Source: a bacterium
Lineage (GTDB): Bacteria; Patescibacteriota; Patescibacteriia; Patescibacteriales; UBA12465
Assembly (NCBI GenBank): GCA_035402825.1
Contig: DAONDZ010000001.1
Location: 108,839 to 172,838, forward strand
Reading direction: 5' to 3'
DNA length: 64,000 nt
Shown here piece by piece: positions 2,882 to 10,952 of this stretch (the stretch's first letter is position 1; every line of letters starts with the position of its first letter). Both the position numbers and the translations under genes were made by a program. The notes beneath the pieces were generated by a model. The model ran no database searches and was not told the DNA's origin. It saw nothing but the letters and a program-made list of their open reading frames with translations.

Positions 2882-3070
2882 TAAAAAAAGCGCTTTTAAC
2901 CCCCGATTGCTCGGAAGCTCCCCGACCGCCTAAAATCGGAGAATTTATTACAGGCGTTTATTGGTTTTTCAATGCTTTTATATTATCTTAAACCGGATTA
3001 AAAAGCAAGGGGCTTTAATCTAGCCAAATTGGTTAGTTTTGTATGTGTCTGACTGTCTGGCCGGTACTAT

Positions 3071-3094
3071 AAAAGCCCCTGTTAAGGGGCTTTT
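3071..3094 (-). terminator. Hairpin terminator after the 209-aa hypothetical gene
   Basis: AGCCCCT / AGGGGCT stem with a 4-nt loop, flanked by A and T runs. Confidence 0.55.
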
Positions 3095-3119
3095 ATATAT
3101 CTAATATTTAGTATTAGGA

Positions 3120-3749
3120 TTAAATGCTATAAGGACCGACACCGGATTGCTTAGCGTTACCCTGATTAACCAATTTATCTAACTCTTCATCGGATAAATC
3201 AGCACCCTGGAAGCGGTTAGCATATTCTCTCATGGCCTTAGTTCTAAAATTCTGGCCATTAATCATATCGCCCAAACCTTTTTTGATTTTCTTTTCATTG
3301 ACCAATTCTTTGGCAATGTCTTCGGCTAAACTGATGCCGCGCAAATCGCGTAAAGATTCAACGATAGTGATCGGGTTGCCATTATTCTTTTTAGCGTTCT
3401 CCAAGCTCTTTAAAACATCCTTTAATCGGCTTTCCATATCAGAGCCCTGCTTAGCCTCGGCTAATTTAGCCTGAGTGCGGCTAATCAAATCCTCAAACAT
3501 GTCATTCTTCAATTTATCAACAGCAGTTCCTTTTTCTTTATTCTGCTCTTGAGAACCGGACATGTTCTTGATGTCGTTGATAGCGCCCTCTACCTTGCTC
3601 TTGGCAAGATTCAAATCATCAGCTACTTTGTTTTTTAAATCTTCATTGCTAACGGTTTCTTCTTCCCGGTCCAATACTTCAATATCGGAACCTGGTTCTT
3701 GACCTTCAAATTTCTTGTCCATATTGTTTTTGTTAGTTTTAAAATTCAT
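3120..3749 (-). CDS. Hypothetical acidic, probably coiled-coil protein (209 aa)
   Basis: Long ORF with an ATG start and its own terminator. Composition is rich in K/E/D/N. I recognise no motif. Confidence 0.5.
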   Translation of the reverse strand: MNFKTNKNNMDKKFEGQEPGSDIEVLDREEETVSNEDLKNKVADDLNLAKSKVEGAINDIKNMSGSQEQNKEKGTAVDKLKNDMFEDLISRTQAKLAEAKQGSDMESRLKDVLKSLENAKKNNGNPITIVESLRDLRGISLAEDIAKELVNEKKIKKGLGDMINGQNFRTKAMREYANRFQGADLSDEELDKLVNQGNAKQSGVGPYSI

Positions 3750-9189: not shown

Positions 9190-9498
9190 TTAATTTTTAG
9201 AAACTTTATTAAGATTAGCTTTATAAGCCGCCTTGTCCTTTCGAGATTGATCCATGCGGCGGTCAAGACTGGCAATCATCCTATCTTCAGCGCCTTCGTC
9301 GGCGATATCTTCAACATCAATAACATTTTTCGGCTCTTTGTTAAATCCTTCGTCAAACTCACTTTCCAAATTAAAAGGAGAATCGGTTTCCGGCAATTTG
9401 CTGCGATCCTTTTCTTCCCTAATTTGCGGGGTTTTCCCGATAATTTCCTCTTGTTGTTCAATCGGTCTCAAACGTTCATGATTTTTAAATAGTCCCAT
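9190..9498 (-). CDS. Hypothetical acidic protein (102 aa)
   Basis: ORF with an ATG start whose stop lies 2 nt before the infC start. No recognisable motif. Confidence 0.4.
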   Translation of the reverse strand: MGLFKNHERLRPIEQQEEIIGKTPQIREEKDRSKLPETDSPFNLESEFDEGFNKEPKNVIDVEDIADEGAEDRMIASLDRRMDQSRKDKAAYKANLNKVSKN

Positions 9499-9530
9499 AT
9501 TTTTTAAAATTAATAATAAAACTCACCTTG

Positions 9531-9603
9531 AGCGGGTAAGCGGAATCGAACCGCCATCTTCAGCTTGGAAGGCTGACATAATGAACCATTATACGATACC
9601 CGC
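9531..9603 (-). tRNA. tRNA-Gly (anticodon UCC)
   Basis: Hand fold: acceptor GCGGGTA/TACCCGC, anticodon stem-loop TCAGC-CTTCCAA-GCTGA, T arm GGCGG-TTCGATT-CCGCT. No encoded CCA. Confidence 0.88.
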
Positions 9604-9620
9604 CTACTCTAAATTGTCTG

Positions 9621-9704
9621 TGCCGCGGGAGGGAATCGAACCCTCACAGTATCGCTACTATTGGATTTTAAGTCCAACGCGTCTACCAATTCCGCCACCG
9701 CGGC
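9621..9704 (-). tRNA. tRNA-Leu (anticodon UAA), long variable arm
   Basis: Acceptor GCCGCGG/CCGCGGC, anticodon stem-loop TTGGA-CTTAAAA-TCCAA, long variable arm, T arm GAGGG-TTCGATT-CCCTC. Confidence 0.9.
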
Positions 9705-9716
9705 AGCCACTGACTG

Positions 9717-10098
9717 TGGAGATGATGGGAATTGAACCCATGTCTAACAAGTTTTTAAGTTAGCTTGATACAAAATTAGTCTGGTTTAATTGTCACCGCT
9801 AGATTAAAAACCAAACAAAATATCTAACGGTCAACCGACGAAGGTTTCGTCCAATTAGAGTCGGCAAGCCAATTGAACTGAGCTCCTGATATGACACCGA
9901 ACATCAACCACGGAGCTAGGCTGAGTCGATGGTCGCGGCAATTTAAGCGGCGACGGTAGCCATAGCCGGGACTTTCCATGAGAAAGCGGCTTTGGCAAAA
10001 GTGTTTTTTACACTTATAAGTTGCCGATTGATAACGAGGATCAGCGCCCCGTTTTGAGCTAATTTAAAGACACCTTATTATCGATGCCTGTCATCCCC
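9717..10098 (-). ncRNA. ssrA: tmRNA (SsrA), about 382 nt
   Basis: The 5' GGGGAUG pairs with the 3' CAUCUCC+A, including the G3:U alanine identity pair. T arm is ATGGG-TTCAATT-CCCAT. An internal reading frame ends GCT ACC GTC GCC GCT TAA. My tentative tag is AKAAFSWKVPAMATVAA, resuming near tmRNA nt 103. The gene lies immediately after smpB. Confidence 0.85.
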
Positions 10099-10549
10099 TA
10101 ACTGCTCTCTTTTTTAAATTACTGAGCTCGCGCTCTACTTCTCGCTTCTTAATTACTTCCCGTTTATCATATTTCTTCCGACCCTGGCCTAAGCCAAACT
10201 CCAATTTTACGAAGCTGTTCTTAGTATATATTTTTATCGGCACCAGTGTCAAGCCAGAACCATGTTTTTTCCCAGCAATTTGGGCGATTTCTGACTTTTT
10301 CAAAAGCAATTTACGCGGCCTGACCGGATCATAGCCGGCCTTCAAGCCGGAAGCCGGTTTATACAAAGATATATGCGCCTTAAGGAGGTATAAATCGCCA
10401 TCTCTAAAGTCAATATAGCTCTCTTTTAAAGAGATATTGCCCTGTTTGACCGATTTTACCTCATGACCCAACAAAACTAGCCCGGCTTCATAAGAAACCA
10501 GGATTTCGTAGTCAAAAACGGCTCTTTTGTTGTTAGCTAATATCTTCAT
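10091..10549 (-). CDS. smpB: SsrA-binding protein SmpB
   Basis: NKRAVFDYEI...EAGLVLLGHEVKS...YIDF..GDLYLL..HISLYK. SD-like GGAGGGG lies just upstream. The TGA stop (10093..10091) lies inside the tmRNA 5' end. Confidence 0.9.
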   Translation of the reverse strand: MKILANNKRAVFDYEILVSYEAGLVLLGHEVKSVKQGNISLKESYIDFRDGDLYLLKAHISLYKPASGLKAGYDPVRPRKLLLKKSEIAQIAGKKHGSGLTLVPIKIYTKNSFVKLEFGLGQGRKKYDKREVIKKREVERELSNLKKRAVRG

Positions 10550-10616
10550 ACCCCTCCATATTGACTTATTTTATAGTTTATGTCAACCTGTACTATCGCT
10601 CATTAAAACTAAAGAC

Positions 10617-10952
10617 ATGATAACAATCACCGTATTGGGGCTGCCGCCCCGAGTAACCACGAAAACTCTGACAGCGCTGAAAAGCAGTCTGATCAATGAA
10701 GCTTTCCATGCTCCCAATAACGAGCATAACTTAAATGAAATAGTCTGTGTGATTCCCAAAGGAAGCTGGCCGGAACAAAAAATAATGATTCTGGTGGAAG
10801 GATTGTATTATAATCCTGACCGCAAGCAACGCTCCAAGAAGGAAGCAGCCAAAGAAATGGTCAGAATCACCGGGACCTTTTTCCCAAGCCTGAACATTCA
10901 TTGTCTGGTAGGCCCATTTGACCACTTACCAGGATTTTTCAAAAGGAAATAA
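10617..10952 (+). CDS. Hypothetical protein (about 111 aa)
   Basis: ORF on the opposite strand to its neighbours. I prefer the internal ATG (MITITVLGLPP) at 10617 over the track start at 10527, which overlaps smpB. No motif recognised. Confidence 0.4.
   Translation: MITITVLGLPPRVTTKTLTALKSSLINEAFHAPNNEHNLNEIVCVIPKGSWPEQKIMILVEGLYYNPDRKQRSKKEAAKEMVRITGTFFPSLNIHCLVGPFDHLPGFFKRK

Follow-up and report, generated by a model that had tools for sequence, protein, structure and literature searches.

Transfer-messenger RNA (tmRNA, the product of ssrA) and SmpB act together on ribosomes at the 3' ends of mRNAs. The subject here is the smpB-ssrA locus of a patescibacterial genome (assembly GCA_035402825.1, contig DAONDZ010000001.1), where smpB ends 8 nucleotides (nt) inside the tmRNA gene and a promoter for ssrA very probably lies within the smpB coding sequence (CDS). 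The whole stretch of DNA analysed, 64 kb long and spanning positions 108,839 to 172,838 of the contig, is referred to as the window. The most frequent neighbour of smpB is ssrA (Hudson et al. 2014, Figure 1, PMC4131195), and in such ordinary linkage the two genes have the same order and orientation as in the window. The spacer between them is 72-244 nt in seven sampled Bacillaceae-type genomes (Anoxybacillus, Ureibacillus, Priestia, Alkalihalobacterium, Domibacillus, Bhargavaea and Halobacillus), enough for an intergenic promoter, whereas Patescibacteria mostly have a spacer of 0-20 nt, with the candidate promoter inside smpB.

The closest described system is that of Candidatus Carsonella ruddii, in which smpB overlaps ssrA and for which a feedback through non-stop mRNA has been proposed (Hudson, Lau and Williams 2014, PMC4131195); the overlap was also reported by Mao et al. 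(2009, RNA Biol 6:355), as cited in PMC4131195. In the 2014 survey of about 2000 genomes the overlap was found nowhere but in Carsonella (PMC4131195). As in Carsonella, smpB of the window enters the mature tmRNA on the same strand and has its stop codon there, and maturation of the tmRNA 5' end should yield smpB mRNA with no stop codon, on which its own product can act. In Carsonella the extent of the intrusion varies among strains, only half of them have it, and SmpB is degenerate and lacks its C-terminal tail (PMC4131195), whereas SmpB of the window is full length with its tail, the overlap is fixed at 8 nt and the stop codon is U6-G7-A8 of the tmRNA. Unlike in Carsonella, moreover, the overlap recurs in several free-standing lineages of Patescibacteria and is coupled there to the putative promoter in smpB. 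The overlap and the self-targeting loop that it implies were previously a curiosity of one degenerate insect endosymbiont; the intact, fixed-length recurrence of the overlap speaks for a repeated architecture, not decay.

An earlier reading of the same DNA (the original prediction) had located the overlap exactly and had proposed that removal of the smpB stop codon by RNase P would couple SmpB synthesis to tmRNA maturation in a negative feedback. The feature is real and the proposed function plausible from the sequence, but since the Carsonella feedback has already been published (PMC4131195), the mechanism is a rediscovery. What appears to be new, as far as could be found, is the patescibacterial lineage and the recurrence of the overlap; in the open-access literature and bioRxiv preprints no smpB-ssrA overlap was reported outside Carsonella and no ssrA promoter inside smpB, which is not proof of absence.

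A related logic is described for arfA of Escherichia coli, in which cleavage by RNase III gives a non-stop mRNA whose product is tagged by tmRNA (PMC4131195; PMC10107115). By analogy, an endonuclease would remove the stop codon here too, such that the protein would accumulate only when trans-translation is limiting. The enzyme would be RNase P at a tRNA-like structure, whereas arfA is cut by RNase III at a hairpin; and the regulated protein would be a component of trans-translation, whereas ArfA is its backup. There is no homology to ArfA, the Pfam search of the smpB product matching the SmpB family only. Overlaps of a CDS with a tRNA gene, e.g. FtsW/RodA with tRNA-Ile in Helicobacter (PMC4131195, Table 4), likewise place the 3' end of a CDS inside an RNase P substrate and are candidate sources of frequent non-stop mRNA. 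Those overlaps join unrelated genes, whereas that of the window joins two partners of one machine.

Table 1. Features of the smpB-ssrA locus, in coordinates of the window
Feature	Position	Strand	Description	Source
Candidate smpB promoter	10558..10586	minus	TTGACA (10586..10581), 17 nt, CAATAT (10563..10558)	clade alignment
smpB CDS	10549..10091	minus	152 amino acids; ATG at 10549, stop TGA 10093..10091	open reading frame (ORF) listing
Putative ssrA promoter embedded in smpB	10223..10252	minus	TTGACA (10252..10247), 18 nt, TATACT (10228..10223); 11/12 consensus match	promoter scan
smpB/ssrA overlap	10091..10098	minus	8 nt; GGGGAUGA, both tmRNA nt 1-8 and the end of smpB (A/GG GGA UGA, the slash marking the tmRNA 5' end)	
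ssrA (tmRNA)	9717..10098	minus	G10098 to discriminator A9717	ARAGORN and Rfam
Tag reading frame	9943..10011	minus	resume codon GUA 10011..10009 after AUAAGU; tag VKNTFAKAAFSWKVPAMATVAA; UAA 9945..9943	
tRNA-Leu (UAA)	9620..9704	minus	12 nt past tmRNA discriminator	ARAGORN and Rfam
tRNA-Gly (UCC)	9530..9603	minus		ARAGORN and Rfam
Terminator-like hairpin and T-run	9511..9541	minus	overlaps tRNA-Gly 3' end	consensus scan alone

Locus sample and detection of tmRNA genes

Loci were sampled from metagenome contigs (80) and from GTDB genomes (80), with exact-protein look-ups added for the closest homologues. The GTDB loci are a broad sample among the matches listed, not the closest relatives, and served as background; close relatives were drawn from the metagenome contigs and the look-ups, JGI samples Ga0265297 and Ga0172381 being among their sources. 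Detection of tmRNA combined ARAGORN, Rfam and an acceptor-stem detector, because degenerate T-loops cause ARAGORN to overlook many patescibacterial tmRNAs, among them the majority of those that overlap smpB. Such T-loops, e.g. GCUCAUUACUC, GUGCAAAUCC and GUGAAAGGCC in place of GGUUCGAAUCC, occur among L098, L116, L157, L100, L094 and L062, and surveys based on ARAGORN will thus under-count tmRNA in Patescibacteria, above all where it overlaps smpB. In locus L035 the relaxed acceptor-stem detector returned a spacer of -88 nt that is false, Rfam finding no tmRNA there.

Promoter sequences within and upstream of smpB

The hexamers of the embedded element are near consensus and stand within the 16-18 nt spacing of sigma-70 promoters. 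The codons that carry them encode the segment G-LT-LVPIKI-YT-K of SmpB, an instance of its conserved motif GLTxxPxxxYT. Across the loci the hexamers are nearly invariant at synonymous positions, while the six codons of the spacer between them vary freely. Codon choice was counted in the 66 ssrA-adjacent lineages that carry the GLT motif, and the promoter is preserved at synonymous sites in 64 of them. In the -35 hexamer Leu is encoded by TTG in 64/66 lineages against a background of 24%, and Thr by ACA or ACT in 61/66 (background 53%). In the -10 hexamer Tyr is TAT in 63/66 (background 69%), Thr is ACT in 44/44 (29%) and Asn is AAT in 14/14 (58%). The last base of the -10 hexamer is T in 65/66 whatever the amino acid, codons for Ser, Asp and Ile at this place also ending in T. 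Third positions of the Leu, Tyr and final -10 codons carry 1.7-1.9 bits of information and the last -35 base 0.8, as against 0.03-0.47 in the spacer codons. The p values of about 7e-35 for the Leu codon and about 2e-21 for the -10 Thr codon overstate independence, because the lineages are related; the scrambled state of the spacer codons argues that synonymous sites are saturated, countering this caveat of kinship.

The hexamer pattern is absent from all nine lineages that have the same protein motif but a non-adjacent ssrA, e.g. L028 (CTCACC...TACGAC) and L067 (CTAACG...TACCCG). Relocated ssrA genes have a near-consensus promoter directly upstream, TTGACA-17-TATACT in L067 and TTGACT-18-TATAAT in L054. 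The pattern also had predictive value: three loci (L022, L034 and L153) displayed it without a tmRNA call, and Rfam then found a same-strand downstream tmRNA in each. Where the pattern is lacking, Rfam found either no tmRNA in the locus or one about 1.8-1.9 kb away, and in L120, which has a partial pattern (8/12), the tmRNA is on the opposite strand. Within the window, promoter sites matching at least 11 of 12 consensus bases number 10, compared with 2.5 expected in shuffled sequence; the organism uses consensus promoters. Eight of the 10 are intergenic, including five located 48-60 nt upstream of ORF starts and two located 14-25 nt upstream of tRNA genes. The site in smpB is the only one within a same-strand ORF, the other nine being intergenic or in an opposite-strand ORF alone.

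TTGACA-18-TATACT in smpB is thus very likely to be the ssrA promoter. The predicted transcription start is at about A10216, which would give tmRNA a leader of about 118 nt of smpB 3' sequence. As synonymous sites of the promoter are kept where smpB is followed by ssrA, tmRNA probably has its own start site, and most of it would be transcribed independently of smpB mRNA. With the promoter embedded no intergenic one is needed, which explains how the spacer could contract to 0-20 nt and more than once give way to an overlap. The original prediction held that smpB and ssrA must be co-transcribed, and named as contrary evidence an independent ssrA promoter inside smpB together with the lack of a co-transcript. 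A near-consensus candidate for such a promoter has now been found (10252..10223), while a co-transcript is still to be expected, the 8-nt overlap leaving no room for a terminator, so that smpB mRNA has to continue into ssrA. Co-transcription therefore stands for smpB mRNA entering ssrA and is corrected, by the conserved intragenic promoter, as the source of tmRNA. The embedded promoter is a more solid result than the feedback at the overlap and is, as far as could be found, undescribed. It represents dual coding, of a protein motif and a promoter, maintained across a large bacterial group, and it offers a simple sequence mark that predicted tmRNA genes missed by ARAGORN.

Upstream of smpB, a block TTGACA-17-CAATAT is invariant in the four aligned members of the clade to which the window belongs (the window, L001, L162 and L164), amid flanks that are not conserved, and in all four it ends exactly 8 nt before the ATG. 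CAATAT is a weak -10 hexamer (3/6, with A2 and T6 present) and was therefore not reported by the simple promoter scan. An invariant block in unconserved surroundings suggests that smpB probably has its own promoter, such that the locus has two tandem starts. The smpB mRNA may be leaderless or nearly so, judging from this position. The 8 nt before the ATG (10550..10557) are Shine-Dalgarno-like in some members (GGAGGGGT, GGAGAGGT) and not in L001 (ATAGCCAT).

The smpB-ssrA junction

The 3' end of smpB reads ...GCA GTT AGG GGA TGA, in agreement with the ORF listing, the last three codons being those given in the original prediction. Identity of the protein as SmpB is evident from Pfam PF01668 (165.3 bits against a cut-off of 27, residues 5-145) and from 2761 homologues at E <=1e-10, of which the nearest named belong to Patescibacteria (Candidate Phyla Radiation; Falkowbacteria and the Parcubacteria group). 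SmpB of the window has retained the motif DKRE..K.R in its C-terminal tail, and the tail can be aligned with those of 28 homologues. The tmRNA was called at 10098..9716 by ARAGORN and at 10098..9714 by Rfam (RF00023, 135.5 bits against a gathering score of 47, model positions 1-374, full length). Both place its 5' end at G10098, as had been proposed, so that the covariance model starts the tmRNA there and not downstream of the stop codon, and every coordinate of the 8-nt overlap is borne out. The acceptor stem, GGGGAUG paired with CAUCUCC in 7 base pairs including G3:U and followed by the discriminator, likewise matches the sequence and the Rfam alignment. It cannot be extended by position -1 (A10099), and the stem with its G3:U pair cannot shift in register. 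The T-arm is AUGGG-UUCAAUU-CCCAU, and the acceptor end has the tRNA-Ala-like features of RF00023.

Conservation and origin of the overlap

The AGG GGA TGA junction is shared by L001 (SmpB 89% identical), L161-163 (85%) and L164 (77%), and in L162 and L164 the Rfam 5' end of tmRNA lies 8 nt before the end of the stop codon. On a neighbour-joining tree of SmpB these loci and the window form one monophyletic clade. The expectation that the overlap would be kept in related genomes is thus confirmed, in this clade as well as in distant patescibacterial loci. In the sister clade (SmpB 64-69% identical) the spacer is 4-23 nt, and a junction of that clade, AAG AGG TAG ttta/GGGGATGC, aligns codon for codon with AAG AGA GCA GTT A/GG GGA TGA of the window. 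The alignment suggests that an ancestral stop codon, four codons upstream, became the sense codon GCA and that the old 4-nt spacer is now translated. Stop loss would have added A-V-R-G to SmpB and moved its end to the tmRNA, where U6-G7-A8 now serves as stop, the A at position 8 completing UGA.

The spacer was surveyed in 88 lineages (<90% SmpB identity) with ssrA downstream on the same strand. It is an overlap in 14 lineages, 0-5 nt in 18, 6-20 nt in 14, 21-100 nt in 22 and 101-600 nt in 20. Four of the overlapping lineages belong to the clade of the window. Outside it an overlap of exactly 8 nt, confirmed by Rfam or ARAGORN, is present in L031, L131, L098, L116, L157, L100, L165 and L167. 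The overlap is 41 nt in L090 and looks like 11 nt in L109, where it is unconfirmed, the contig being cut too early to confirm the tmRNA; both loci are labelled Saccharibacteria. All overlaps share one frame, with tmRNA nt 6-8 read as a codon, a frame in which SmpB is extended least when position 8 is A. On the tree, lineages with the overlap are scattered among relatives that lack it, a pattern that points to several independent origins, their number being approximate because the tree rests on a protein of 150 residues.

Some further features of the sampled loci may be recorded. Among the 88 adjacent lineages tmRNA nt 6-8 are UGA in 29, UGC in 24 and UGU in 15; where the spacer puts these nucleotides in the smpB frame and smpB has kept its own stop, UGA is found there in just 4 of 25 lineages. 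In L090 (positions 2904-3253, labelled Saccharibacteria), smpB enters a tmRNA that begins GGGAGUGG by 41 nt, and SmpB is extended by about 13 residues from tmRNA sequence; its tmRNA positions 6-8 are UGG, so no backstop stop codon is available. SmpB ends in RG in 10 of the 120 nearest homologues, but this is an imperfect proxy for the overlap: among three checked in DNA, L165 and L167 were true and L166 (AGA GGA TAG) was a chance match. Eight records (L081, L084, L085, L087, L088, L094, L095 and L097, binchicken co-assemblies) are titled 'uncultured Gammaproteobacteria' or 'Bdellovibrionales', yet their smpB-ssrA locus is of the Patescibacteria type, as judged by SmpB identity, the tag peptide and the embedded promoter, and they are apparently mislabelled.

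Proposed mechanism and alternative explanations

The observed anatomy of the locus, its conservation, the synonymous-site signal and the link of that signal to ssrA adjacency are, on balance, probably those of a compacted trans-translation module. It would be comprised of an smpB promoter, smpB with the ssrA promoter inside it, ssrA, tRNA-Leu, tRNA-Gly and a terminator, and stop loss in smpB would have closed a self-limiting loop. RNase P is described as the enzyme that matures the tmRNA 5' end (PMC3985003). Most tmRNA would be made from the embedded promoter as a precursor with the leader of about 118 nt, to be trimmed by RNase P at G10098, while full-length smpB mRNA from the upstream promoter would necessarily read into ssrA. 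Once the acceptor stem has folded and RNase P has cut, the smpB mRNA would end ...GCA GUU A without a stop codon. Normal SmpB would then come solely from ribosomes that terminate before processing; later ribosomes would stall and be rescued by tmRNA-SmpB, their SmpB chains being tagged. SmpB per transcript would in this way be limited to pre-processing translation, and its yield would depend on how active trans-translation is, as it does for ArfA in E. coli. The non-stop logic of the original prediction holds in the same conditional form: given a cut at G10098, the sequence leaves the upstream fragment with no stop codon. The self-limiting loop would follow from the geometry of the junction, be it an adaptive regulator or a side-effect of spacer loss that is tolerated.

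Several points weigh against this reading. The start sites, the RNase P site and the 3' end of smpB mRNA are all predicted, the kinship of the lineages inflates the p values given above, and the promoter spacer of 18 nt is one above the optimum. With regard to selection for the overlap, its frequency does not stand out from that of other small spacer values, and one stop-loss mutation in a gene with the common 4-nt spacer is enough to produce it. It is also conceivable that 3' exonucleases destroy the cut fragment of smpB mRNA before it has trapped many ribosomes. Within the 64-kb window neither a gene or RNA of RNase P nor an alternative rescue factor was found; the loop would depend on RNase P, and recovery from low SmpB on a release route independent of tmRNA.

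It is quite possible, though not the reading favoured here, that the overlap is a harmless by-product of genome reduction with no meaningful feedback on the SmpB level; SmpB would then come from transcripts that are translated before RNase P cuts them or that escape cutting, and cut fragments would be quickly degraded. The spacers form a continuum (-41, -11, -8, 0, 2, 3, 4, 5, 8 ...) with no excess at -8 beyond stop loss in an accessible frame, the overlap has been gained and lost repeatedly among close lineages, and the embedded promoter by itself explains why the spacer is dispensable; in Carsonella, too, the overlap is found in just half of the strains (Hudson et al., PMC4131195). Nevertheless, the overlap has persisted through a clade diverged to 77% SmpB identity, and read-through transcripts can hardly escape processing by RNase P, such that some non-stop smpB mRNA should exist. 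The confinement of all overlaps to the single frame of shortest extension also argues that selection acts on the junction. A reading that goes further than the compacted module is less likely than not, namely a hard-wired module throughout Patescibacteria, with UGA of tmRNA as the smpB stop in the clade of the window and in roughly five to eight mutually distant lineages, and a genuine homeostatic SmpB loop with ArfA logic. Its premise that RNase P maturation makes every read-through smpB mRNA a non-stop substrate is to be regarded with the same doubt. If true, the homeostatic loop would apply ArfA-type logic to the rescue machinery. Natural replicates for the feedback idea exist in sister lineages, some having a 4-nt spacer and others an 8-nt overlap, which are directly comparable.

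Two other explanations bear on the transcripts and on the overlap as such. According to the version of the original prediction, smpB, ssrA and the two tRNA genes are one obligate co-transcript from a single upstream promoter, which ties tmRNA supply to smpB transcription. In its favour, neither a terminator nor an intergenic promoter would fit at the junction, gene order is kept among relatives, and a terminator-like hairpin is seen only after tRNA-Gly; but preservation of the promoter inside smpB in 64/66 adjacent lineages, its loss where ssrA is elsewhere and the promoters of the same type at relocated ssrA genes make this version improbable. The overlap itself would be unreal if the tmRNA 5' end were downstream of the stop codon, if UGA encoded glycine (genetic code 25) or if the assembly contained an error or frameshift, and this is scarcely credible. 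Genetic code 25 exists in Gracilibacteria and Absconditabacteria, but is rejected here, since code 11 gives dense, unbroken ORFs, those of at least 150 codons from stop to stop spanning about 53 kb of the window, and UGA is a genuine stop. Two independent tmRNA finders agree on G10098, the stem with G3:U is fixed, and the identical junction in independent assemblies (L001, L161-L163, L164) excludes an assembly error. The compacted module with its own ssrA promoter accordingly remains the preferred reading of the locus.

Tag peptide

The coding part of the tag corresponds to tmRNA nt 88-156 (ARAGORN) and encodes 22 residues. Its frame runs AUAAGU/GUA ... GUC GCC GCU UAA, for a C-terminus of ...ATVAA. 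In 14 aligned related tmRNAs AUAAGU is invariant and is followed at the same position by G[C/U]N, and in the Rfam alignment GUA of the window sits on the consensus GCA resume codon. The tag proposed in the original prediction, AKAAFSWKVPAMATVAA, has the right frame and C-terminus but begins five codons late, comprising the last 17 of the 22 residues as delimited by ARAGORN and the alignment of 14 tmRNAs. The resume codon of the window is GUA; clade member L164 has GCC, and relatives further off have GCN. Among close relatives, including L162, L164 and L167, it alternates at this position between Val (GUA, GUC) and Ala (GCC, GCU, GCA).

Neighbouring genes

The order of ssrA, tRNA-Leu 12 nt further on and tRNA-Gly, as originally read, matches the ARAGORN and Rfam calls and is kept in relatives L004-L021 and L164. 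The hairpin and T-run after tRNA-Gly are likely to mark the end of the transcription unit. Between tRNA-Gly and infC-rpmI-rplT is an ORF of 102 amino acids (9190..9498, minus strand) with no Pfam match; in relative L165, infC directly follows ssrA, with no intervening tRNA genes. On the other side, trigger factor and smpB are separated by an ORF of 111 amino acids (10617..10952, plus strand; MITITVLGLPP...), likewise without a Pfam match and oriented away from smpB. The relative with 85% SmpB identity (L161, L162) lacks this ORF, and its distance from tig to smpB is only about 105 nt.

In a minimum free energy fold of the predicted primary transcript (9700..10220, minus strand) the acceptor stem is present and is lengthened by pairing of the final smpB codons (GCAGUU) with GGCUGC of the trailer and the beginning of tRNA-Leu. 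This pairing in the fold of leader, tmRNA and trailer was set aside, its z-score being just -2.1 and the centroid structure lacking it. The tmRNA discriminator is followed by CAG (9714..9716, minus strand), such that 3' CCA is not encoded; the same applies to tRNA-Leu (CAG, 9617..9619) and tRNA-Gly (CAA, 9527..9529), both on the minus strand. All three RNAs would thus need trimming and a CCA-adding enzyme.

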